The notes: a model not told the origin generated them from the letters alone. A stretch of 64,000 nt of DNA from Gammaproteobacteria bacterium (GCA_041396125.1 JAWKZG010000014.1:116229-180228), one strand, 5' to 3'. Shown: positions 4,627 to 64,000, numbered from the stretch's first letter. A program made the numbers and translations.

Positions 4627-5384
4627 AGTGCCTGGTGCAGCGCGCTGAACTCCTGACTGAGTTTATGCTGCGGGTCGAGATAAATCAGCGGTCGGGCCTG
4701 TTCGTGCGATTCCCGGATTTTCACCGAGCTGGACAGACAGGGCATAAGTACCGGCAGACCTTCCTCCTGCAGCTGCTGCACTAATTGCCGGGGCAGTTTG
4801 GCGCGGGCCTGGAACTGATTGACCACAATACCCTCGATCTGCAGATCAGGATTGTGATCAGCCCGTAATTCCTCAATCTGGGCGATCAGCTTGTACAACG
4901 CCTGGCGGGAAAAATCATCGCAATCAAACGGAATCAGGCAACGCTCGGCAGCAATCAGCGCCGAGCGTGAATAAAAATTCAGCGCTGGCGGCGTATCGAT
5001 ATAAACCGCATCGAAATCACCGCTGAGTTCGTCCAGGGCTTCGCGCAATTTGTACATTTTATAGCGCGATTCCAGCTTGCTTTCCAACTCATCCATAGCG
5101 TTATTGGCGGCCAGCAGCGACAGATTGGCAAACGGCGTGGGCGTGACATAAAACGCGGGCGGATTCTGCACCAGACGAAAGGTCAGTAGTTGCTCGAAAA
5201 AATCACTAAGCGTGGTATCGAGCTGTTCCACTTGTTTACCCAGCATATAGCGGCTGCTATTGGCTTGCGGATCGAGGTCGACCAGCAAGGTTCGCAAACC
5301 CTGATGAGCGCTCACTGCCGCTAAATTACAACTGATGGTGGATTTGCCAACGCCACCTTTCTGATTGAAGACAACACGACGCAT
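4614..5384 (-). CDS. ParA/MinD-family ATPase (orphan)
   Basis: Deviant Walker A NQKGGVGKST at N-terminus; 256 aa; no parB nearby. Confidence 0.85.
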   Translation of the reverse strand: MRRVVFNQKGGVGKSTISCNLAAVSAHQGLRTLLVDLDPQANSSRYMLGKQVEQLDTTLSDFFEQLLTFRLVQNPPAFYVTPTPFANLSLLAANNAMDELESKLESRYKMYKLREALDELSGDFDAVYIDTPPALNFYSRSALIAAERCLIPFDCDDFSRQALYKLIAQIEELRADHNPDLQIEGIVVNQFQARAKLPRQLVQQLQEEGLPVLMPCLSSSVKIRESHEQARPLIYLDPQHKLSQEFSALHQALQPL

Positions 5385-5500
5385 AATGTTCTCGAACTAG
5401 GGTGCAAAGTAACAGGGGCGGACTGAGTGTCGGGGAATAAATATATATGACATGATCCGCATTAAAGCGGATTTGTCACGCGATGCCAAGCGCCTGCTCG

Positions 5501-6661
5501 CTACAAACCCAGGAAATCCATCAGTTCCTGCCGTCTGTGCTGGGTATCTTCATAGCCCAGGCTGATCAGATCGCGACAAAAATGCGCCTCGAACAATAAA
5601 TACGTTAATAATGCTGAGTTCGACTGCGCTCCGCCCCCCAGGGCTTTCAGCAAAAACCGGACGCTGCGCGGGATATGCGCGATATGACGTGGCGCGATAG
5701 TGGCGATATCCTGACTCGGCGCCAGGGTCAGCAGTCGCACCGGACGGAAAGGATGGCCGGCCGAACCATCGTTACGGCCGTACTGCAAAAGCATATTAAT
5801 CCGTTCCAGCCGTTCGGAATCCGCCGTCAGATTATCCCGAAACAGCGTGTCCAGCACATAGCCGGCAATATGTCCCAGGGTGGGGTAATCGGCGCGTGAA
5901 TCCGTTGCGGGCATCATGCTCAGAGCAGGGTTTCGCACTGTGATGACCAGCAGTTGATCCGCCCCCAGATGCAAGGCAGGGCTGAGCGGGGCGGATTCAC
6001 GCATCGAGCCGTCGCCATGATATTCACCATTTAGATACACTGCCGGAAATACCAGCGGTAAGGCAATGGACGCCATAATATGATCGATACGCAGTTCAAC
6101 CGCCCGTCCCAGGCGTCGGCTGCGGAGCCAGCCGGTTTGCTCGGGAGTGGTCTGGAAATGACAGATGGAACGCCCGGAACTGTAGCCGCTGGTCTGGATT
6201 GCCAGCGCCTTCAGCGTACCCTGATCGATGGCCTGGCTGATCCGGGTCAGGCGGACATGATTTTCCAATAATCCGCGCAATGGTTGATTATCCAACAAAG
6301 CTTCGGGCTGCTGGCTGAATAGACCGCCGCTACTCAGGGCCAGCAGCCAGCGTGAGCCGCCCAGCAGCGCAGAACGGGTATCCGAGCGATAAATTTTGCT
6401 CGGATGCAGATGGCTCCAGATGCCGACCAAGCGCTGAATACCTTCGACCGGCTGGCTGGCAAAACTGGCGAGCATGGCAGCATTGATCGCCCCGGCCGAG
6501 GTGCCGCAGATGACCGGAAACGGATTAGCGGTATCCGCCGGCAGCCATTCTGCGAGTGCCTGCAGTGCCCCGACCTGATAGGCATTACGGGCACCGCCAC
6601 CGGGCAGGATCAGTCCGGTGACAGGGCTTGGGCTGGTCAGATTGTCAGAAGGCATATTCAT
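5501..6661 (-). CDS. Patatin-like phospholipase family protein
   Basis: GGGARNAYQVG oxyanion motif and GTSAGA serine hydrolase motif. Confidence 0.85.
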   Translation of the reverse strand: MNMPSDNLTSPSPVTGLILPGGGARNAYQVGALQALAEWLPADTANPFPVICGTSAGAINAAMLASFASQPVEGIQRLVGIWSHLHPSKIYRSDTRSALLGGSRWLLALSSGGLFSQQPEALLDNQPLRGLLENHVRLTRISQAIDQGTLKALAIQTSGYSSGRSICHFQTTPEQTGWLRSRRLGRAVELRIDHIMASIALPLVFPAVYLNGEYHGDGSMRESAPLSPALHLGADQLLVITVRNPALSMMPATDSRADYPTLGHIAGYVLDTLFRDNLTADSERLERINMLLQYGRNDGSAGHPFRPVRLLTLAPSQDIATIAPRHIAHIPRSVRFLLKALGGGAQSNSALLTYLLFEAHFCRDLISLGYEDTQHRRQELMDFLGL

Positions 6662-6731
6662 ACTGGAACAATACGCAGATGTGTCCGCTGCGGATTTTAT
6701 ACTGGCAGTCGTTCAGGCGTTTTCCAGAGTT

Positions 6732-7229
6732 TTACGCGACAGGCTTCAAGCCAAGTGCGTGTCGCCACTGCTGGTTCAGTTCCTGGTAGCCAGCGGTACC
6801 ATAGGCCTGCATCCAGTCGCGAGACATCTGCAGATACAGCGGTTTATGCTGCTGCTGCCAGTGGTTCAGACTCCAGGGTTCGCTGCTCAGGGCAATCAGC
6901 TCGGTAGCGCGGAATACCAGTGCCTCGTGAGTGGCACCGTCCAGTGTCTGCACATGGTGTTTCTGCAGTACGAATTCGTCACCCTCGAAAAAGCAGATAC
7001 GGCGGCCGTCTTCCTCACTCAATCCGCTGACCAGCAAACCCTCCACGCAGCTTTCACTGTGCGGTGCCAGGGCGGGAAAGGTTTCCTGCTCGACCCGGTA
7101 GCGGGCAAATCCCGGCAGTAAAGCCGTTTGTCTGTGCAGTGCCTGCAGCGGGCTGTCGAGCACGATGTGCAGAACATCGGGATCAAGCAGGCTGCCAAAA
7201 AAACCAATGCATATCAACCTCTGGGACAT
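6732..7229 (-). CDS. Gamma-glutamylcyclotransferase-like (AIG2/GGCT fold) protein
   Basis: 165 aa; N-terminal IGFFGSL (YGTL-like) and EGDEF motif typical of GGCT-like fold; weak. Confidence 0.45.
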   Translation of the reverse strand: MSQRLICIGFFGSLLDPDVLHIVLDSPLQALHRQTALLPGFARYRVEQETFPALAPHSESCVEGLLVSGLSEEDGRRICFFEGDEFVLQKHHVQTLDGATHEALVFRATELIALSSEPWSLNHWQQQHKPLYLQMSRDWMQAYGTAGYQELNQQWRHALGLKPVA

Positions 7230-7345
7230 CTTTCTGTCTCAATAGCATGGCGAGCGAAACGCCGCATTGCAAGTTGTGATGTGATAGTGCTGTGAGAATT
7301 AACAGGCATACTTCGACACATGTTATGAGTAAGCAGGAGAAAACC

Positions 7346-17604: not shown

Positions 17605-18354
17605 TCAGATTTGATTCATTCCGCCGTCGACAAACAGCTCAATCCCGTTGATAAAACTGGCGTCATCGGATGCGAGGAACAGCACGGCATTAGCAATGTC
17701 TCGGGGTTGACCGATACGGTTAGCAGGGATTTGTTCAATCAAAGCGTTCTTGATGCCCGCGGCCTGTTCACCGCCACCGAACAGATCGTCGAGGCCGGCA
17801 GTGTCAGTCAAACCAGGGCTGACAACATTGACACGGATATTCCGATCCTTGAGGTCCAGAATCCAACTACGGGCAAAGTTGCGCACAGCGGCTTTGGACG
17901 CAGAATAGACGCTGAAATTCGCAGTGCCCGCAGTGCCCGTGGTGGAAGATGTCAAAATGATTGAGGCACCGTCTCGCAGCAGTGGCAAAGCCTTTTGAAC
18001 CGTGAACAGCGTACCCTTCACATTGGCGTCGAACGTCTTCTGATAGTGCGCTTCGGTGATCGCGCCAAGGGGTAGCAGCTCGCCGCCACCGGCATTGGCG
18101 AACAGTACGTCGATTTGTGAATGACGTTGCTGAACAACATCGTAAAGCTGATCGAGATCTTCAAGATTGGCCGAATCACAGCGCACGCCGGTGACATCAC
18201 CACCGATCGCCTTTACCGCAGCGTCAAGCGATGCCTGGCGCCGTCCTGTAATAAACACTGATGCACCCTGGGAAGCGAACGCTTTAGCCGTGGCCAGACC
18301 TATACCGCTGGTGCCTCCGGTGACGATGACGACTTTGTTTTCAAAATTACTCAT
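17605..18354 (-). CDS. SDR-family oxidoreductase
   Basis: TGGTSGIG cofactor motif, YSASK catalytic motif. Confidence 0.9.
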   Translation of the reverse strand: MSNFENKVVIVTGGTSGIGLATAKAFASQGASVFITGRRQASLDAAVKAIGGDVTGVRCDSANLEDLDQLYDVVQQRHSQIDVLFANAGGGELLPLGAITEAHYQKTFDANVKGTLFTVQKALPLLRDGASIILTSSTTGTAGTANFSVYSASKAAVRNFARSWILDLKDRNIRVNVVSPGLTDTAGLDDLFGGGEQAAGIKNALIEQIPANRIGQPRDIANAVLFLASDDASFINGIELFVDGGMNQI

Positions 18355-18445: not shown

Positions 18446-19396
18446 GTGAAGCGTTCTATAATTAGAACGATGAAAACGGATTTAAATGATTTTGCTTATT
18501 TTGCTGAGGTCGTAACTCATGGTGGGTTTGCGGCAGCTTCGCGTGCCCTGAAAGAACCCAAATCCAAGTTGAGCCGGCGCGTTGCCCGGCTTGAGGAGCG
18601 CCTGGGGCTTCGACTCATTGAGCGTTCCAGTCGTCGTTTTCGCGTGACCGACGTCGGGCGCTTGTTCTTTGAGCGCTGCAAGGCCATTCAATTGGAAGCA
18701 GAGCAGGCAGAAGCCCTGGTGGCAGAGGCGCAGTCTGAACCGCATGGGCGTATTCGCTTCAGTTGTCCCACCGGTATGATTGAAGTCATCTCAGATTTGG
18801 TGCAAAGCTATTTGCACCGATACCCCAAAGTGCGTTTGCAATTGCTGGCGACCGACAGGCCGGTCGATCTCATCGAGGAGCGAATTGATTTGGCGTTACG
18901 GGTTCGCGTCGCGTTGACCAGTGATGCTGAATTAACAATGCGCAGCCTTGGTAGATCAACGCGTATCCTGGTTGCGAGACCGGAGCTGGCAAATCAATTG
19001 CGCACCCCTGAGCAATTAGCGCAACGCTCAATATTGGCAACGAATGACATAGATAGTGAAACTGAGTGGACCCTTGAGAGCCAAGATGGAAAAACCATGA
19101 CATTACGTCATGAAGCTCGATTCGGTTGTGGTGACATGACCGCTGTGCGTGACGCAGCAATGGCTGGATTGGGTGTGGCGCTTTTGCCTTATCATGTATG
19201 CCGGAAGTCCATGAGTGAGGGACAACTCACTCGGGTGTTGCCGGAATGGCGTGGGCAGCAAGGCCTCGTGCATCTTGTTTTTACCACTCGGCGCGGCTTA
19301 CCACCATCGGTGCGAGCTCTGATTGACCTTCTTGCTGCGAGATTTCCAGACGATATTTTGGATGCTCCCGAAGCAGAAAGCCATAGTGCCGTATAG
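18446..19396 (+). CDS. LysR-family transcriptional regulator (divergent from SDR gene)
   Basis: HTH LNDFAYFAEVVTHGGFAAASRAL; LysR substrate-binding domain; start probably M at 18473. Confidence 0.85.
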   Translation: MKRSIIRTMKTDLNDFAYFAEVVTHGGFAAASRALKEPKSKLSRRVARLEERLGLRLIERSSRRFRVTDVGRLFFERCKAIQLEAEQAEALVAEAQSEPHGRIRFSCPTGMIEVISDLVQSYLHRYPKVRLQLLATDRPVDLIEERIDLALRVRVALTSDAELTMRSLGRSTRILVARPELANQLRTPEQLAQRSILATNDIDSETEWTLESQDGKTMTLRHEARFGCGDMTAVRDAAMAGLGVALLPYHVCRKSMSEGQLTRVLPEWRGQQGLVHLVFTTRRGLPPSVRALIDLLAARFPDDILDAPEAESHSAV

Positions 19397-19960: not shown

Positions 19961-20042
19961 CGTCGCCATCAGAGAAAATCAGTAAGGTGACAAATTTAGG
20001 GTTTTCATCTCATACGCATGGGACCATAGCCGCGACTGGGTA

Positions 20043-21122
20043 TTGGCTCTTGCAGAGCGGCTTCGCAATGATGGAATCGACATTGTGCTCGATCAATGGG
20101 AAACGGTTCCCGGCGATATGCTGCCCAAGTTCATGGAATCCGCAGTTCGTGAAAGCGACTACGTGCTTGTTGTCTGCACTCCTTCGTATAAGAAGAAATC
20201 GGATGATCGAACAGGTGGAGTCGGCTACGAAGGGGACATCATGACCGCAGAGGTCTTCGCTCTCGAAAAGCGAGCGAAGTTTATCCCACTCCTCCGCGAA
20301 GGTGACTGGCGAGCGGCGTCACCGAGTTGGCTGCTGGGAGCCTATTATCTCGACCTGCGAGGGGAGCAATACTCAAGTGACACTTATGGCGAATTGCTTG
20401 ACCTTTTGCTGGGGCGTCGCAAGAAGGCGCCTGACCTGGGGACGTCTCGACCATCCTGGGCTGAGCTAAGTCCGATTGAAATCGTGCAAATTCCCCTCTC
20501 TAGCGAACTCCCTCAATTCTCCAAGGACGGATGGCTTACGCTTATAGCTCACGCATTGGCTAAGACGTTTAGTGACCAGCCAACCACGCGATTCGTCGGA
20601 CTGCTATCGCAACGGATCGTCGAACGAGATGGCAACGAGTTCACGGTGGTATCTATGACTGCACCGTTTTCCAGATTCCTGAAAAGCTATAAACTCTCAA
20701 TCTCGTCGCTGATGGAGGCTTCGCTAAGGCGGGACAGACCGGCAATGGAGGAACAGAAGGCAGACCTTGCTGATACGCTTTCGAAGTGGCGATACCGAGT
20801 AGAAGTGGGATGCGGCGAATCCTGGACGGCAAATCAGTTTGTTGTGGATGCTGAAACGAAGCTCATCGAAGTCACACCTGCCACTCTGGATACAAAGCAA
20901 AAGAAATTTTGGCGACCAAAGTCGACCAGCGAAGTTCTTGCTTTGATTGCGCATCTGAGTAATCCAATTGTTCAAATGAACATTGATGGTCTGTTAGAAG
21001 ATCCGAGGTTGACTGATTTGGTGAAAGACCTTTTAGATCATAAATACGTCAATATGGATCGCCTCCATGTGGCTTTGTCAAATCCTGAACAGTGGGAGTA
21101 CTCTGGTGATGAGGACGTTTAG
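20043..21122 (+). CDS. TIR domain protein with ~230-aa uncharacterised C-terminal domain (cassette A1)
   Basis: In-frame FRVFISYAWDHSRDWVLALAERLRNDGIDIVLDQWE...DYVLVVCTPSY fits TIR alphaA-betaB pattern; TIR homology extends upstream to ~19995 without canonical start (TAA at 19983; listed start is TTG). Confidence 0.65.
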   Translation: MALAERLRNDGIDIVLDQWETVPGDMLPKFMESAVRESDYVLVVCTPSYKKKSDDRTGGVGYEGDIMTAEVFALEKRAKFIPLLREGDWRAASPSWLLGAYYLDLRGEQYSSDTYGELLDLLLGRRKKAPDLGTSRPSWAELSPIEIVQIPLSSELPQFSKDGWLTLIAHALAKTFSDQPTTRFVGLLSQRIVERDGNEFTVVSMTAPFSRFLKSYKLSISSLMEASLRRDRPAMEEQKADLADTLSKWRYRVEVGCGESWTANQFVVDAETKLIEVTPATLDTKQKKFWRPKSTSEVLALIAHLSNPIVQMNIDGLLEDPRLTDLVKDLLDHKYVNMDRLHVALSNPEQWEYSGDEDV

Positions 21123-23481: not shown

Positions 23482-23556
23482 GCCTAACAATGCCATTAAC
23501 ACGGACCCCAAAAAGCTACGCTGCGCTCCGCTTTGTGGGACCGGTTATGGCTGGCG
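23482..23556 (+). other. attC A4 (GCCTAAC ... GTTAGGC)
   Basis: Perfectly complementary R''/R' pair, 75 bp. Confidence 0.6.
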
Positions 23557-23581
23557 TTAGGCGTCACTAAGCGCTTCGGCA

Positions 23582-56813: not shown

Positions 56814-57416
56814 ATGCAGGCCAATGATGCTGGAGGACAAGCAATGCAAACCGTAGCCTTTACCCGCATGGCGGATGGCACCCGCGAAGAATACCAGTTC
56901 CTGGAAAAGCTCGAAGAGGAGTATATACAGGCGTTGCCGCAACGGCTGATGGAGGCCTTGCAGCGTCTGGAGCATTCTTTTTCAGGCTATAAGGTAACGC
57001 GCCTGGGGCACTCCCTGCAGGGGGCGACCCGTGCCTACCGCGACGGCCGGGAGGAAGACTATATTGTCGCAGTGCTGCTGCATGATATTGGCGACGAGCT
57101 GGCACCGCATACGCACAGCGAACTGGCTGCTGCCGTGCTGCGTCCGTTTGTTCCGGAAAAGCTGTACTGGATTGTCAAGCACCACGGCGTGTTTCAGATG
57201 GTGTATTACGCCCATCATTTCGGCGCTGACCCGAATGCGCGCGACCGTTTCAAAGACCACCCCTGGTATCAGGACGCGGTCGAGTTCTGCGAACTGTACG
57301 ACCAGAACTGCTTCGACCCGGATTACGATACCTTGCCGCTGACGTTTTTCCAGCCCATGCTGGAGCGCGTCTTTGGGCGCAAACCGCAATTCGGTGGCGA
57401 GCGGGATATGAACTAG
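56814..57416 (+). CDS. HD-domain phosphohydrolase
   Basis: LLHDIGDE HD motif. Confidence 0.7.
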   Translation: MQANDAGGQAMQTVAFTRMADGTREEYQFLEKLEEEYIQALPQRLMEALQRLEHSFSGYKVTRLGHSLQGATRAYRDGREEDYIVAVLLHDIGDELAPHTHSELAAAVLRPFVPEKLYWIVKHHGVFQMVYYAHHFGADPNARDRFKDHPWYQDAVEFCELYDQNCFDPDYDTLPLTFFQPMLERVFGRKPQFGGERDMN

Positions 57417-57497: not shown

Positions 57498-58091
57498 TCA
57501 GGTCGATACCGGCGTAGCTGGTATTAAGTGTTTGGCCTTAATTAGTTGGTCTTTTAAGGGTAGTAACAGATTTTCCGGAAGCATAGTCACCCGGTCCTTA
57601 TTACCTTTGCCTTCGCGAACGATGATTTCGCGCCGCTCAAATTCAATATCTTTGACGCGTAACCGCAAGCTTTCCAGCAAACGCATGCCTGTGCCATAAA
57701 GCAAACTTGCCACCAGCCACATGGTACCGTTCAATTCCGCTAGCAATGCCGACACTTCGCGTGGTGTCAACACCACCGGCAATCGTTTGGCTGCTTTGGC
57801 TTCCACCATTTCTTTCAACCACGGCAAATCGATATTGAGCACTTCTTTATAGAGAAAAAGTAAAGCCGATTTAGCTTGATTTTGGGTCGAGGCCGAAACC
57901 TTGCGTTCAACTGCCAGATACGTCAAAAAGGCTTCCACTTCTTTGACACCCATATCTTTGGGATGGCGCTATTGGTGGTACAAGATGAAACGCTTTGCCC
58001 AGTCGGCGTACGCGTCTTCGGTCCGAATGGAATAATGTTTGACACGTATCCGGTGACGAACCTGGTCAAGTAGTATTGGCAGTTTATTCAT
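57498..58091 (-). pseudogene. intI: Integron integrase intI: in-frame TAG (57969-57971) and loss of C-terminal half
   Basis: [84 protein letters not shown]... is the IntI N-terminal fold; only ~190 of ~320 aa present; catalytic RHRY C-terminal region absent. Confidence 0.75.
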
Positions 58092-58092
58092 C

Positions 58093-58217
58093 CGCAAAGT
58101 TTTAGGTTCGTATAATATTAATGTAAAGTTTATCTTTATGAATTTAATGGTTTTTATTTTTTGACGTTGACATTATAAAGTATGGCGGTTTATTTTTGCG
58201 TCTGTCTAAATTTAGTT
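58093..58217 (+). promoter_or_regulatory. attI-like region B with Pc-like promoter (TTGACA 58167-58172, TTATTT ~58189-58194); crossover G at 58215
   Basis: Divergent from intI start; ends GTT|AGCC; ~80% identical to 19840-19960. Confidence 0.6.
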
Positions 58218-58863: not shown

Positions 58864-58930
58864 ATCTAACAAAAGCATCAACAGGGATGTCTGCTTCGCA
58901 GCCACCCGTTATGAAAATCGTTAGACCGAT
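58864..58930 (+). other. attC B2 (ATCTAAC ... GTTAGAC)
   Basis: Inverse core/R' pair flanking short palindrome. Confidence 0.45.
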
Positions 58931-58958
58931 CGCGCCCCGGACCTAGGAGGCATGCTGC

Positions 58959-60003
58959 GTGAAAGTTCTAATCGTTGGCTCCCTGCATCATGATTTTGAT
59001 GAAGAAGTGAGGAACGCCTTCGTCGGCGCCTGCAAGGAGATCGGGGCCACCTTGGCACGCGGTGGGTTCGAGTTCGTCGTGGGATCATCAAGCCCGAACA
59101 CAGCTGACAAATGGGTTCTGGAGGGCGCCGCGCACGTTGAGGGCAAGCACAAAGTATTCGTCTTTCGACCGGACGATGGCCCAACGCCGAAGCTGCCGTC
59201 CGATGACACCACAAAGGGAGAATTCATTGTCAGCTACAAGCGACTGCGTGGTCCATGGGCCGGTGGTCGTCTCCCAGATCCAGGCGGCCGATTGTGTTCT
59301 TATGGTTGGCGGGGCGCGAGGCAGTGCGCAGGTCGGGTATTCAGCGATGGCACTGGAGAAGCCCGTCCTTGCGGTAGCTTGTTTTGGTGGTTCAGCCGCA
59401 GAAGCCTGGACACAGTTCGAGCCATTCTACGAGCGTCTGTCGACGACCAGAGAGCGGGTTGGTAGCCTTCGAGAAAAATGGCAACCGGGCAACGACGAGA
59501 TCGTGGTCAACGTTCTGACAGAACTTGTCCGGCGCAAGATTTTCAGCCGAACGCACCTCGCTACAGATGCGGTTCCCTTACTGCTCAACATGGCCTTGTT
59601 TGCAGCGTGGGTGTGGCTTTTCGTTGCGCCCCCCAAGCCATTGCAAGCATCTTTCTTTGCGTTGCTAGCCGTGTCGGCGTTTCTGGGGACAGCTCTTCGA
59701 GGATCGCTTCGGGTGGTTGTCGATCCAACTGCAGGTCCCTCACGAAGCGAACTCATTGCTGAATTCAGTGCCGGCCTTGTTCTCGCGTTTGCACTCGCGC
59801 TGCTCTACCTCGCAGGCAGCTTCACTTTCACAGGTGATTTCAATGCCATCTCCTCGAATTCCACCACCGTCACCGTGGACTACCAGAGGGTGGCGGTTGC
59901 AATGGGGTTACTTGGAATTGCAGGTGGTTGGTTGCTTGAGCGAGTTGCCGAGAACTTGACCGGCTGGTTCGGTAGTCGTCTGCCAAGTGCTGACGGGCCG
60001 TGA
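58959..60003 (+). pseudogene. LOG/SLOG-like Rossmann domain fused to C-terminal 4-TM domain; frameshift near 59240 (cassette B3)
   Basis: N-part MKVLIVGS...GGFEFVVGSS and C-frame VLMVGGARGSAQVGYSAMALEKPVLAVACFGG resemble LOG-family PGGxGTxEE/GG region; four TM helices after residue ~190. Confidence 0.5.
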
Positions 60004-60014
60004 GTTGAAAAGTC

Positions 60015-60065
<51 letters not shown>

Positions 60066-61925
60066 AGCGTGTGTGCCGGGCATGGCACGAAACGAGTCGG
60101 GTGAGAGTCCCGATACCAGGTATTCGCAGAGCCGAAGGTTAGGAGAAGGGCAAGGGCGTCATCGTGAGGTGGGGTCTGTAGGAAGCCCAATCCAAAGCGG
60201 CGGGGCGACGAACAGGAACTGGATACGAGGTGTGACACCGACGGGGCCAGTGGGCACGTGACCATCAAGCCCTCCATCTGCACGGGTCGGTGTTTTATAA
60301 ATCCAGCGTCTACGTCGCGAACGTTTCGTGTCTTACCCCGGGAGGTCTGTCAATTGTTCACGGATCGAACTGAAACGGGAGTAATCGCGTTTGATCGGTT
60401 GGCAGAAGTCAGCAGCGGGCATAGTAGGCGAGATCTCACCGCCGAAGGCCCAAACCTTTGTGGAAGTGACCGCCGGTGAAGAACCCATCGAACGCCTCAG
60501 CCCCGCAGCTTGCGCTGCCTCTGGTGATGCCGGAGGAGGAACGATGTGTTGAGGATCCGGACGACTCACCTTCCAAGACGAGCGCTTCATCGCTCATGGC
60601 GCAGGTATTGGAGCGGGAGAATCTGCTACGTGCGCTCAGACAAGTCCAACGTAATCGAGGTGCGCCAGGCATCGACGGCATGTGTGTCGAACAACTGTCT
60701 GGCTATCTCACCCTCCATTGGCCGCGCATCCGGACTGAACTGGCCGAAGGGCGCTATCGCCCCAAGCCGGTTAAGCGGGTCCTGATTCCGAAGCCTGACG
60801 GACGGCAACGCAAACTGGGTATTCCCACGGTCCTCGACCGTTTTATCCAGCAGGCGATTGCGCAAGTCGTGCAACGGCACTGGGAGCCGCACTTTCATGA
60901 CAACAGTTATGGATTTCGTCCCGGGCGCAACGCCCATCAAGCGATCAGGCACGCGCAGAGCGCGATCCGAGGCGGCAAGCGCTGGGTCGTTGACCTGGAT
61001 CTGGATGCCTTCTTTGATCGGGTCAACCACAGCCGCCTGATTCGGCGGTTGTACCGTCACCTGTCTGAACGTGGCCTGCTGCAACTGATCACTCGCTACC
61101 TGAAGGCGGGGGTCATGACAGAAGGCCAACGACAGGCGAGCGCCGAAGGGGTGCCGCAAGGCGGCCCCTTATCGCCGGTGCTCTCCAACGTCGTGCTCGA
61201 TGAGCTGGATTGGGAGCTGCACCGTCGAGGCCACACCTTTGCCCGTTATGCGGACGACTGCCAGGTATACGTCAGCAGTCAGCGAGCAGGCGAGCGGGTG
61301 ATGGCTCGTCTACAGCGCTATATCGAGCGGACCCTTCGACTCAAGGTCAACGCCGGGAAAAGTGCCGTGGACAAACCCTGGAAGCGTAGCTTCCTGGGCT
61401 TCACCTTCAGCCGCCGGGGTGCCCGGGTGAAAGTGGCCGAGAAGGCCATCGACCGCCTGCAAGCCAACATCCGGCAGCTGAGCCGTCGCACGAGAGGCTA
61501 CAGTTTGCGTCAGATCATCGCTGAGCTGAAGAAAACCCTGCTTGGATGGAAAGCGTACTTCGACTTGAGCGAGGTACTGAGTCCGCTGCGGGATCTGGAC
61601 AAGTGGCTGCGACGTCGATTGCGGTGTTATCAGTGGAAGCAATGGGGCCGCTCGGGGTATCGCCGTCTGCGCAAGCTTGGCGTTCCCCGGGTACTGGCCT
61701 GGAATACGGCCAAATCGGCGCATGGGCCTTGGCGTATCAGTCACAGCCCTGCACTGTACCAGGCGATGCCGAAGCGTTACTTTAGGGACTTGGGGCTGCC
61801 GGAACTGGCAGCACGATGAACCTCACAAAGGAACCGCCGTGGTACGTGATCCGTATGCCCGGTGGTGTGGGAGGAGAGGGGCTGCGAGGCCTCTCCCTAT
61901 CCCGATTATACGTAAGTAATGATCG
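60066..61925 (+). mobile_element. Group II intron (bacterial class C-like, attC-associated); boundaries approximate
   Basis: 5' GTGTGCC... (GUGYG) right after a stem-loop; RT/maturase ORF in domain IV; GC-rich D5-like hairpin GGGAGGAGAGGGGC...GCCTCTCCCTATCCC and short D6-like hairpin near 61870-61920. Confidence 0.55.
60476..61819 (+). CDS. Group II intron reverse transcriptase/maturase (no endonuclease domain)
   Basis: RT blocks 0-7 (PKPDGRQRKLGIPTVLDRFIQQA, YADDCQVYV) and maturase X domain; 447 aa. Confidence 0.9.
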   Translation: MKNPSNASAPQLALPLVMPEEERCVEDPDDSPSKTSASSLMAQVLERENLLRALRQVQRNRGAPGIDGMCVEQLSGYLTLHWPRIRTELAEGRYRPKPVKRVLIPKPDGRQRKLGIPTVLDRFIQQAIAQVVQRHWEPHFHDNSYGFRPGRNAHQAIRHAQSAIRGGKRWVVDLDLDAFFDRVNHSRLIRRLYRHLSERGLLQLITRYLKAGVMTEGQRQASAEGVPQGGPLSPVLSNVVLDELDWELHRRGHTFARYADDCQVYVSSQRAGERVMARLQRYIERTLRLKVNAGKSAVDKPWKRSFLGFTFSRRGARVKVAEKAIDRLQANIRQLSRRTRGYSLRQIIAELKKTLLGWKAYFDLSEVLSPLRDLDKWLRRRLRCYQWKQWGRSGYRRLRKLGVPRVLAWNTAKSAHGPWRISHSPALYQAMPKRYFRDLGLPELAAR

Positions 61926-62512: not shown

Positions 62513-62528
62513 AGGATTATGTTTACCG

Positions 62529-62854
62529 TAGTCGAAACGCCTACCTTTACAAAACTTGCCGCTGATTATTGGGATGAAGATGAGCGAGGGGAATTCGCTG
62601 CATGGATAGCATCTGATCCAGAATTTGGTGATGTAGTTCCGGGGTCTGGAGGCGTGCGCAAAATACGTTGGAACAGAAAAGGCAGCGGCAAGCGAGGTGG
62701 TGTCCGTGTTATCTATTTTAATCGACGGATTAATGGTGAAGTATGGTTGCTGTTGATTTACGCAAAAAGCGCTAAAGATAATATCCCCGCTCATATACTG
62801 AAAGAAATCAAAGAGGAAATTGAACAATGCCAAAGACAGAAAAAGAGTTGTTAG
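62529..62854 (+). CDS. Type II toxin, RelE/ParE superfamily (HigB-like, phage Gp49-like)
   Basis: VETPTFTKLAADYWDEDERGEFAAWIASDPEFGDVVPGSGGVRKIRWNRKGSGKRGGVRVIYF pattern. Confidence 0.75.
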
Positions 62855-63135
62855 AGCGAGATGCTAAGCGCGATATCTGCGCAGAACTTTTACAGTCTGT
62901 GCGAGAAATGAAAGCAGGTAAGCGCAACCGAGTACACCAAATAAAGATATCTTCGGTGATTGAAGCCCGTCAAAAAGTTGGATTGTCTCAAGCAGAATTT
63001 GCTGAGCTGCTAGGAGTGTCAAAGCGAACGCTTCAAGACTGGGAGCAAGGTAGGCGAGAGCCGTCGGGTGCAGCGAAGTCATTACTTGAAGTTGCAAGAA
63101 AGCGGCCTGAAGTATTATTAGAAATATTTAGCTAG
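62827..63135 (+). CDS. HTH XRE-family antitoxin (HigA-like)
   Basis: GLSQAEFAELLGVSKRTLQDWEQGRREPSGAAKSLL; overlaps toxin stop. Confidence 0.75.
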   Translation: MPKTEKELLERDAKRDICAELLQSVREMKAGKRNRVHQIKISSVIEARQKVGLSQAEFAELLGVSKRTLQDWEQGRREPSGAAKSLLEVARKRPEVLLEIFS

Positions 63136-63147
63136 CATTGAGCGCAA

Positions 63148-63242
63148 ACCTAACATCAGGTTGAGGCGGACTTTTTACAAACTGGCCCAACTTGAGTTCT
63201 GCCAGAACAGGCCAATTTGTAAAAAGCCTCTTAACCTGGGCG
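63148..63242 (+). other. attC B5 (ACCTAAC ... GTTATGT), 95 bp
   Basis: Long stems GGACTTTTTACAAACTGGCC/GGCCAATTTGTAAAAAGCC; R' GTTATGT identical to attC A2. Confidence 0.6.
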
Positions 63243-63430
63243 TTATGTGATTGTTTTATGAAATAATATCAAGAAAATGTGTACTAAAGTACCTGTGAGT
63301 GAGTTAGTCCAGCTTCCGATTACCTGGGTTAGAGGTGATGACGAATGACTTAAGACGGTGTTTAAGTCGTTAAAGTCAGGAAACTGTATCAAGCAACCCA
63401 TTAGACTACTAAATTGTGGCTGTGGAAAAA

Positions 63431-64000
63431 CCCATCTCTTTACACACAAGTCAAAAAGCCCCGATTTGCCGGGCATAGCGCAGGCCTGCGGTGAAATCCA
63501 TCACCCGCTGCAAGCCCAGCCAGAGGGTCTTTGCACCGGGCTCGCCATCGCCCTTGCGCCCTAAAAAGCCGCCCAGTCTGGCGATCATGCGCAAGGCAGC
63601 GTTGAGTGTGGGGGGCTGCTGGGGCATGGGCTGTTCGGCCAGTAAATACGCCCCCTGCCACTCCTCCTCAGCCAATACCAGGTTGACGTCCAAATCCGGC
63701 ACTGTGCGTCCCAGGCGCATCAAACGGCCTATACGCCAGCTCACGATCAGATACAGCGCTATAGCCCGCTCCATGCGCGCTAACGTAGACAGTTGTAGCG
63801 CTTCGAGCCGACAGCCCTGTTTGAGAATCAAAAAAAACAGTTCGATTTCCCAGCGTGCCAGATACCAGCTGATCAGCTCCCGTGCCGCCGCCTGATGGGG
63901 GATGTCGCGATTGCTCAGTAAACGCCACAGCACCGGCTTGACGCCCGCCGGGGCCTCGATTTCCTCGGCCATTAATAAATTCACCGTGAGTGCCGGCGCA
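63431..64000 (-). mobile_element. IS4-family (IS50-like) insertion sequence, right end; continues beyond window
   Basis: Terminal sequence CCATCTCTTTACACACAAGT resembles Tn5/IS50 outside end CTGACTCTTATACACAAGT; transposase C-terminus follows. Confidence 0.65.
63451..64000 (-). CDS. IS4-family DDE transposase, C-terminal part (N-terminus outside window)
   Basis: WYLARWEIELFF...IARLGGF motifs match Tn5 transposase (YRRRWRIEEFHKAWK...IARLGGFMD). Confidence 0.75.
   Translation of the reverse strand, partial: APALTVNLLMAEEIEAPAGVKPVLWRLLSNRDIPHQAAARELISWYLARWEIELFFLILKQGCRLEALQLSTLARMERAIALYLIVSWRIGRLMRLGRTVPDLDVNLVLAEEEWQGAYLLAEQPMPQQPPTLNAALRMIARLGGFLGRKGDGEPGAKTLWLGLQRVMDFTAGLRYARQIGAF

Follow-up and report, generated by a model that had tools for sequence, protein, structure and literature searches.

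A frameshifted integron cassette from a family of SLOG proteins with four transmembrane helices and a probable Thoeris-type effector role

Main finding

This analysis concerns a 64,000-nt stretch of DNA from a Gammaproteobacteria bacterium (GCA_041396125.1, JAWKZG010000014.1:116229-180228), hereafter "the window", and one gene within it that encodes a SLOG domain followed by four transmembrane (TM) helices (SLOG-4TM). We consider it reasonably probable that this locus is a one-gene integron cassette holding an orphan and probably dead member of a SLOG-4TM family with a Thoeris-type effector mechanism. The original prediction, made from the sequence of the window, proposed a nucleotide-sensing membrane effector, and this agrees with a sequence profile that places the sensor domain, with relatives in which the C-terminal domain has been swapped and with relatives that have TIR/ThsB partner genes. 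It also named two outcomes that would count against it: no SLOG relationship in profile searches, or a genuine frameshift with no intact homologues elsewhere. Neither outcome applies, since the domain belongs to SLOG and there are intact homologues.

We propose that an intact SLOG-4TM protein would take the place of ThsA as a Thoeris-type effector. Its cytoplasmic SLOG domain would bind a signal derived from nicotinamide adenine dinucleotide (NAD) that a TIR/ThsB-type enzyme produces when phage infects the cell, most likely 3' cyclic ADP-ribose (3'cADPR) or a close isomer. Ligand binding would drive the four-helix domain to oligomerise or open, with loss of membrane integrity and an aborted infection. 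The family probably senses 3'cADPR-type signals and damages the membrane in response. The window copy is most likely a decaying, non-functional remnant, because it has no partner gene, its frame is broken within the SLOG domain and its integrase is degraded.

The gene and its frameshift

The gene lies on the + strand as two overlapping open reading frames (ORFs), 58959..59465 (frame A) and 59062..60003 (frame B). When the frames are joined across 58959-60003, they give a 348-amino-acid (aa) protein that is co-linear with intact homologues of 342-350 aa. The original prediction began the gene at 58931, a position 5 nt past an upstream attC site (58864-58926); the gene itself starts at 58959. 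The glycine-rich segment which it quoted, VLMVGGARGSAQVGYSAMALEKPVLAVACFGG, is present in frame B. The features of the gene are as follows (numbers prefixed L and P are our labels for loci and protein entries).

58945..58950, + strand: Shine-Dalgarno sequence AGGAGG, 8 nt 5' of the GTG start codon, read from the sequence
58959..59270, + strand: frame A, codons 1-104, the N-terminal half of the SLOG domain, ending ...RLRGPWAGGR (translation and homologue alignment)
59270..59271, + strand: frameshift, a 2-nt (GT) deletion, from DNA comparison with L001, L005, L008 and L023
59269..60003, + strand: frame B, codons 105-348 and stop, the remaining part of the SLOG domain and the 4-TM domain (translation)
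59308-59325, + strand: GGxxG(S/T) loop, within frame B
58959..59535, + strand: SLOG (LOG/ThsA/DprA-like Rossmannoid) sensor domain, residues ~1-192
59557..59973, + strand: four-helix transmembrane domain, from hydropathy, AlphaFold2 (AF2) helices and conservation in alignment A3

Frame B corresponds to the NCBI call P0012 ("MAG: Gammaproteobacteria bacterium R3F53_24380"). This entry is annotated as 218 aa beginning MALEKPV, so the public record carries the same broken frame. A search with the provisionally repaired protein retrieved 40 clusters, most of them intact at 340-350 aa and at most 88% identical.

The frameshift which the original prediction reported is present, but it lies at 59270/59271, about 30 nt downstream of the predicted position near 59240. 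Homologues read ...RLRGPWAGGRVSQIQAAD... over this stretch. The closest intact DNAs read GGTCGTGTCTC and the window reads GGTCGT--CTCC, i.e., one GT of a GTGT repeat is gone. The frameshifted reading at the site is GGTCGTCTCC, where intact relatives have CGTGTC, and restoring the GT in silico yields the 348-aa protein. The lesion is inside the SLOG domain and upstream of the GGxxG(S/T) ligand loop, so translation can give only a protein without the ligand loop and the membrane domain, or one without the first half of the sensor.

Two other lineages also have broken frames. L002 (73% identical; Logan SRR24887436, 578-640) has an independent frameshift two codons upstream of the window's: an extra G, making a G7 run where G6 is expected, which can be restored by a +1 shift. 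In the L020/L021 lineage the frame is broken elsewhere, at residue ~224. Entries P0025 and P0038 (216-242 aa) seemed truncated like the window copy and would have made truncation recurrent, but these are gene-caller artefacts, because the genes at loci L001 and L003 are intact and begin with GTG or another alternative start codon.

One alternative is that the window frameshift is not biological, or is bypassed: it could be an assembly or consensus error in a metagenome-assembled genome (MAG), a site where ribosomes shift by +1, or a slippage-based phase-variation switch by which a toxic effector can be turned on and off. The source is indeed a MAG, as the name of P0012 states, and the window and the independent homologue L002 each have a lesion in a simple repeat (GTGT and G6) of a single W-A-G-G-R-V coding stretch. 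However, these are different slippage events, unlike in type and position, and the DNA comparison at this site found no slippery motif common to intact homologues. Frame A continues for 64 codons past the shift, and neither a stop codon nor a rare codon such as promotes +1 shifting lies close by. We rejected programmed frameshifting as the main explanation on these grounds, i.e., differing lesions, no conserved slippery motif and no stimulatory stop codon. The third lineage, L020/L021, is consistent with ordinary decay. The integron-associated genes of the window (intI and a bSEFIR gene, both described below) are damaged as well, whereas its long housekeeping ORFs have no such damage, and this speaks against an assembly that is noisy or error-prone throughout. 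This alternative is in our view rather improbable. We infer that the frameshift is biological and read the frameshifts as ordinary decay at a mutable spot, which may have been favoured since a cell gains nothing from, or is harmed by, an effector that has lost its controller.

A SLOG domain with a replaced catalytic residue

The original prediction assigned the N-terminal ~190 aa to SLOG, and both profile and fold comparisons bear this out. A family profile matches the LOG-like protein TM1055 (PDB 1rcu) over residues 2-184, with E 2e-5 when built from 34 sequences and E 3.5e-10 when built from 95. The window protein alone stays below threshold: its Pfam match to LDcluster4 has E 0.24 (11.4 bits against a cut-off of 26.3 bits), and its NCBIfam match to TIGR00725 has E 0.18. 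Pfam hits among 95 diverse relatives were to LDcluster4 (45 relatives at E<0.01, best 2e-6), STALD (10) and Cap17-like_N (4).

For the fold, we used the AF2 model of P0001, which is 88% identical to the window protein and has a pLDDT of 82. Residues 1-192 of the model form an alpha/beta domain, and four long helices follow between 201 and 339. Foldseek matched it to 1rcu, ThsA-SLOG, LOG, MCP, DprA and TRPM N-terminal domains, and the structure search included similarity to ThsA-SLOG bound to 3'cADPR. The N-terminal domain has the SLOG superfamily fold, i.e., a Rossmannoid three-layer alpha/beta arrangement that can be superposed on solved SLOG domains.

The ligand-binding loops are well conserved in alignment A3, which holds the 95 sequences and is numbered here by P0001: G7 (92/95), S8 (89/95), G118 (86/95), G119 (all 95), G122 (62/95) and T123 (74/95). 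T48-A49-D50 and D112 are further conserved SLOG positions. In the window these loops read VGS and GGARGS, as expected for the glycine loops of a SLOG domain.

LOG-type phosphoribohydrolases have a catalytic Glu in the motif (P)GGxGTxxE, and here the family departs from them. The corresponding position, residue 126 of P0001 by alignment with 1rcu, is A/V/T/I/L in 85 of the 95 sequences (Val in the window), and Glu is not among its five commonest residues in the alignment. This replacement points to a binding domain rather than a LOG-type hydrolase. The same residue separates the family from its closest relatives by sequence, TM1055/TIGR00725 and Pfam LDcluster4 (SLOG cluster 4). These share the GS and GGxxGT loops, but they are soluble, single-domain proteins of ~160-170 aa which retain the Glu after GGxxGT, whereas SLOG-4TM proteins lack it and carry a 4-TM extension.

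The protein could instead be a membrane-anchored LOG-type enzyme, with an N-terminal domain that hydrolyses a nucleotide N-glycosidic bond (as a cytokinin-type phosphoribohydrolase or an AMP nucleosidase). The closest sequence relative of solved structure, 1rcu, is a LOG-like/TIGR00725 protein, and LOG enzymes are among the structural matches. Besides the replaced Glu, this idea has to contend with window-protein scores far under the TIGR00725 and LDcluster4 cut-offs, and with fusion partners of the same SLOG subtype that are effector domains (TIR, patatin, EAD7) and not metabolic ones. We regard it as extremely unlikely.

A membrane domain in a family with swapped C-termini

The four TM helices of the original prediction are recovered. 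Hydrophobic segments in the window's own sequence (residues ~204-226, 229-250, 264-293 and 312-330) coincide with the AF2 helices of P0001 (201-223, 229-255, 263-292 and 304-339). A basic linker, ELVRRKIFSRT, precedes the first helix, so by the positive-inside rule the SLOG domain would be cytoplasmic. Residues conserved in this domain (P0001 numbering, alignment A3) include W218, present in 95 of 95 sequences, G244, R248, E/D269, R309 and E326, and they suggest a specific oligomer interface or a pore lining.

The 4-TM domain matched no Pfam, PADLOC or SLATT model. For SLATT in particular, neither the window protein (E<=10) nor any of the 95 relatives (E<=0.01) gave a family match, and SLATT effectors have two TM helices where this protein has four, so we do not place it in that group. 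No structural analogue of the domain stood out in two fold searches, because SLOG matches dominate both.

The family is large. An exhaustive hidden Markov model (HMM) search found 1,295 clusters at 50% identity with E<=1e-3, and 206 with E<=1e-30. Most clusters are ~340 aa with both domains. Full-length members occur on plasmids (a Rhodococcus opacus megaplasmid and a Streptomyces europaeiscabiei plasmid). A scan of genome contigs found only 2 loci, and a scan of viral contigs found no family member.

Some proteins have the same SLOG subtype with a different C-terminus: a CAP12/Pycsar-type TIR (P0126, E 4e-34), a patatin (P0132, E 1e-11) or EAD7 (P0150). At the level of domain architecture, this is the pattern of a sensor with an interchangeable effector that is seen in signal-activated defence proteins.

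Partner genes in relatives

Operonic partners of the TIR/DrHyd class occur in three independent SLOG-4TM lineages. The first is L001, whose protein is 85% identical to the window protein. It has an attC end (GTTAGAC, 5254-5260), the SLOG-4TM gene (5291-6331) and a TIR_2 gene (6388-7260, E 4.8e-29). The 57-nt spacer between the two genes contains no attC, and the next attC is at ~7266-7320. Because attC sites are found only outside the pair and not in the spacer, L001 is a complete two-gene cassette.

The second lineage comprises L032, L033 and L034 (40% identical, at least 9 contigs), which are in a type I restriction-modification island. Here a 260-aa upstream gene overlaps the start of the SLOG-4TM gene by 4 nt and matches the PADLOC ThsB model from end to end (E 3.5e-78). 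Compared over the full length, this ThsB has 44% identity to type IX ThsB and 43% to type V ThsB, and both of those are reported to make 3'cADPR on infection (bioRxiv 10.64898/2025.12.03.692087). At L032 (605-11032 of ENA ERZ18650346 scaffold_187), ThsB and SLOG-4TM sit within a tightly packed string of same-strand genes. The string also has an N6-methyltransferase, a type I specificity subunit, a 405-aa protein encoded just downstream of the ThsB and SLOG-4TM pair, a PDC-S49-like 597-aa protein and a DUF1016/YhcG nuclease.

The third lineage is L031, from an unannotated megaplasmid record of Rhodococcus opacus (pRho-G13, NZ_CP110470.1; 4516-6044, corresponding to 93965-95493 of the record). 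A 162-aa upstream gene with a Nuc_deoxyrib_tr match (E 2.4e-8) overlaps the start of a full-length SLOG-4TM gene, and an AbiEii toxin gene is adjacent to the pair. This deoxyribosyltransferase-like gene may be a non-TIR (DrHyd-type) signal generator for the SLOG-4TM effector. In the scheme of Aravind and colleagues, a single clade unites TIR, DrHyd and SLOG, and TIR and DrHyd are listed with the enzymes that generate signals (PMC9503650).

Three weaker cases can be added. L025 has a TIR_2 gene two genes away. In L002, the next gene, 596 nt downstream, encodes a PF20697 "NTase-conflict" protein (E 1.5e-75). In L026, the Caballeronia copy, a NACHT STAND gene is adjacent. An all-against-all BLAST of flanking ORFs from 22 loci gave no conserved neighbour, and Pfam and PADLOC neighbour scans found partners in a minority of loci only. 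Most loci with readable flanks have no recognisable partner (L003-L007, L009, L012-L019, L023, L024, L026 and L030), so a dedicated partner is the exception.

The solitary state of most members, in varied contexts, is an argument for a different explanation: a stand-alone membrane protein gated by a nucleotide or metabolite, in which SLOG senses a cellular or phage nucleotide (ADPR, NAD breakdown products or modified AMP) without a dedicated TIR, gates or assembles the 4-TM domain, and the protein serves as a single-gene defence or as a physiological channel comparable to SLOG-gated TRPM channels. Members sit beside rpoD (L024), as lone cassettes (L023 and the window) or beside the NACHT STAND gene (L026), and a family of ~1,300 clusters at 50% identity is large. 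We think this explanation unlikely, though it has some weight. Against it, three independent lineages have a TIR, ThsB or deoxyribosyltransferase-like gene in the operon, and in two of these lineages the start and stop codons of the pair overlap. The membrane domain has four helices, with no channel-family match and no pore-loop signature. TRPM channels have a 6-TM pore-forming channel downstream of SLOG/MHR, which is not what we found here, and their likeness to the SLOG-4TM protein is confined to the SLOG part.

Comparison with Thoeris and earlier work

As far as gene arrangement goes, SLOG-4TM occupies the ThsA position of Thoeris-like operons in some genomes. Type I ThsA (SIR2-SLOG) is activated by 3'cADPR from the TIR protein ThsB, and the SLOG-4TM gene of relatives resembles it in lying beside or overlapping a ThsB/TIR gene. 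The two differ in their effector parts: ThsA has an N-terminal SIR2 NADase, whereas SLOG-4TM has a 4-helix membrane module C-terminal to SLOG. Their sequences do not match, with only weak STALD matches and no match to the PADLOC ThsA model. Among membrane-targeting effectors of Thoeris and CBASS, type II ThsA (TM-Macro), type V ThsF (DUF2270, 3 TM) and 2-TM SLATT proteins are alike in joining a signal sensor to TM helices presumed to breach the membrane, but in each the sensor or the TM module is different, and there was no Pfam match to SLATT, DUF2270 or Macro.

The SLOG-4TM architecture has already been flagged, though not validated, in a preprint of December 2025 (bioRxiv 10.64898/2025.12.03.692087). 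Its Tables S1 and S2 list operons of TIR with "SLOG and 4TM" as a candidate Thoeris type, with ~5 TIRs of one cluster and no type number. This "4TM SLOG" type has the same stated architecture as ours (a TIR gene beside a SLOG + 4-TM protein). The preprint's "SLOG Patatin", an untested candidate in Table S2, matches the architecture of the domain-swapped relative P0132. The L001 TIR is ~20% identical to the preprint's 4TM-type TIR cluster, and the L001 TIR_2 and L032 ThsB belong to other TIR lineages. A search with a Nitrospira TIR domain did not connect the family to the preprint's type, and two TIR homologues that we looked up (L028 and L029) have no SLOG-4TM neighbour.

Several points weigh against a Thoeris-type effector role for the family, or against our account of the window copy. 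Two "SLOG and 4TM" operons were tested in E. coli and gave no defence (Table S2 of the same preprint). ThsA is detected by fold only, not by sequence, and the SLOG-4TM protein itself matches no PADLOC model. A TIR, ThsB or other signal synthase could be recognised beside only a minority of the relatives whose flanks are readable. Finally, the frameshift could be an assembly error.

No partner in the window

The window cassette holds no second gene. A tblastn search of the 64-kb window with each of the observed partners (ThsB, TIR, the nucleoside deoxyribosyltransferase-like protein and the nucleotidyltransferase) gave no match. The Thoeris arrangement, an effector gene beside or in an operon with a TIR ThsB, is therefore absent from the window, and it is found in L001 and L032-L034.

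The original prediction pointed to a TIR protein 38 kb away as the usual kind of signal generator. The protein exists, encoded at 19986-21122 (+ strand; TIR_2, E 2.8e-15), but that role does not suit it. It matches the PADLOC single-gene bSEFIR model (E 1.5e-59, profile positions 40-203 of 412), has no PADLOC ThsB match and is only 28% identical to the L001 partner TIR over 144 aa. The conserved strand that comes first in this protein, RVFISYAW, follows 5 codons after an in-frame stop, and neither ATG nor GTG nor TTG lies in between; the first canonical start of the gene, a TTG at 20043, is downstream of RVFISYAW. The gene is probably either damaged at its 5' end or using an unusual start. Given the bSEFIR match, the lack of a ThsB match, the low identity and the apparent 5' truncation, we rejected this TIR as the partner: it is neither a plausible signal generator nor obviously intact.

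Integron cassette setting

The cassette setting that the original prediction described holds up, with attC sites on both sides, a Shine-Dalgarno sequence with a GTG start, and remnants of intI. The surrounding elements are as follows.

57498..58097, - strand: degraded integron integrase gene intI (Pfam Phage_int_SAM_4 and partial Phage_integrase)
58864..58926, + strand: upstream attC, 63 nt, ATCTAAC...GTTAGAC, an imperfect inverted repeat with 6/7 complementary R''/R' cores, -17.8 kcal/mol
60016..60068, + strand: 5' part of the cassette's own attC, with a GTCTAAC core and then arms CAGCAT(G)CAGCGG / CCGCTGATGCTG with an extrahelical G
60069..61912 (3' boundary approximate), + strand: group II intron, starting GTGTG (Rfam RF02001, 120 bits, and RF01998)

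The GTTAGAC core of the upstream attC is the left boundary of the cassette. On the right, the R'' core GTCTAAC (60016-60022) starts 13 nt after the stop codon, and this attC is split by the group II intron, which has a reverse transcriptase/maturase ORF at 60476-61819 (Pfam RVT_1 and GIIM). The intron and the cassette ORFs share a strand. Group IIC-attC introns are described as entering the attC bottom strand (PMC3001079), and by that description the orientation here looks atypical.

The intI remnant consists of two fragments in different frames, 57969-58097 (42 aa, N-terminal) and 57498-57953 (151 aa). It lacks the C-terminal catalytic half, and its Phage_integrase match spans only positions 2-86 of the 172 in the profile. 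An HD-domain gene (56814-57416, + strand) abuts it. The SLOG-4TM locus has the features of an integron gene cassette, i.e., a promoterless ORF bounded by attC sites in an array beside intI. Since it is flanked by attC sites and intI is truncated, we describe it as a cassette of one gene, in an array that has lost its working integrase.

A relaxed attC scan was too permissive for mapping the whole array, but individual elements can be described. Right of the intron, two small overlapping ORFs (62520-63135, + strand) resemble, by eye, a RelE/HigB-type toxin and helix-turn-helix (HTH-XRE) antitoxin cassette. They are followed at 63148-63248 by a 101-nt attC-like hairpin (ACCTAAC...GTTATGT, -41.8 kcal/mol). 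At the right edge of the window (63451-63984, - strand) is the C-terminal fragment of a Tn5-family transposase (Dimer_Tnp_Tn5, E 3.4e-38), which may terminate the cassette array.

Far to the left, at 23482-23562 and between two small ORFs, an attC-like palindrome of 81 nt is near-perfect (GCCTAAC...GTTAGGC, 7/7 complementary cores, -34.6 kcal/mol). It speaks for a second cluster of cassettes at ~19.4-26.6 kb, which has no integrase close by. A LysR-type ORF (18446-19396) and an ORF resembling a short-chain dehydrogenase/reductase (17605-18354), both identified by eye only, flank this cluster.

Streamlined defence systems in integron cassettes have been described (bioRxiv 10.1101/2024.07.02.601686 and 10.1101/2024.07.02.601719). 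Like them, the window locus is a small gene of defence type between attC sites, in an array on the chromosome, and other cassettes of related arrays hold toxin-antitoxin and defence-type genes. It is unlike them in that the window copy is broken and the integrase degraded. The terms "SLOG" and "Thoeris" do not occur in bioRxiv 10.1101/2024.07.02.601686, the one preprint of the two in which they were looked for.

What the family may mean

A more speculative idea is that orphan SLOG-4TM cassettes are not debris but trans-acting "listeners" for 3'cADPR-type signals from any Thoeris TIR in the cell, with the recurrent frameshifts in the W-A-G-G-R-V stretch as a slippage switch. We hold this to be very unlikely. 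If it were true, integrons would shuffle immune sensors and effectors as separate cassettes, and the slippage switch would keep a toxic effector off until it is needed.

On our preferred reading, an orphan and probably dead cassette of a Thoeris-type effector family, the window copy mainly illustrates decay: an effector without its signal generator, frameshifted and beside a dead integrase. It offers little new biology of its own. The family may offer more. If our reading of it is right, SLOG-4TM would be a further replacement for ThsA, joining a ThsA-type sensor to a membrane-killing module. The L032 ThsB + SLOG-4TM operon, the L001 two-gene cassette and the Rhodococcus deoxyribosyltransferase-like + SLOG-4TM pair would then be better candidate operons than the two which failed in the preprint, and the L001 cassette would be a complete signalling defence system within a single integron cassette.

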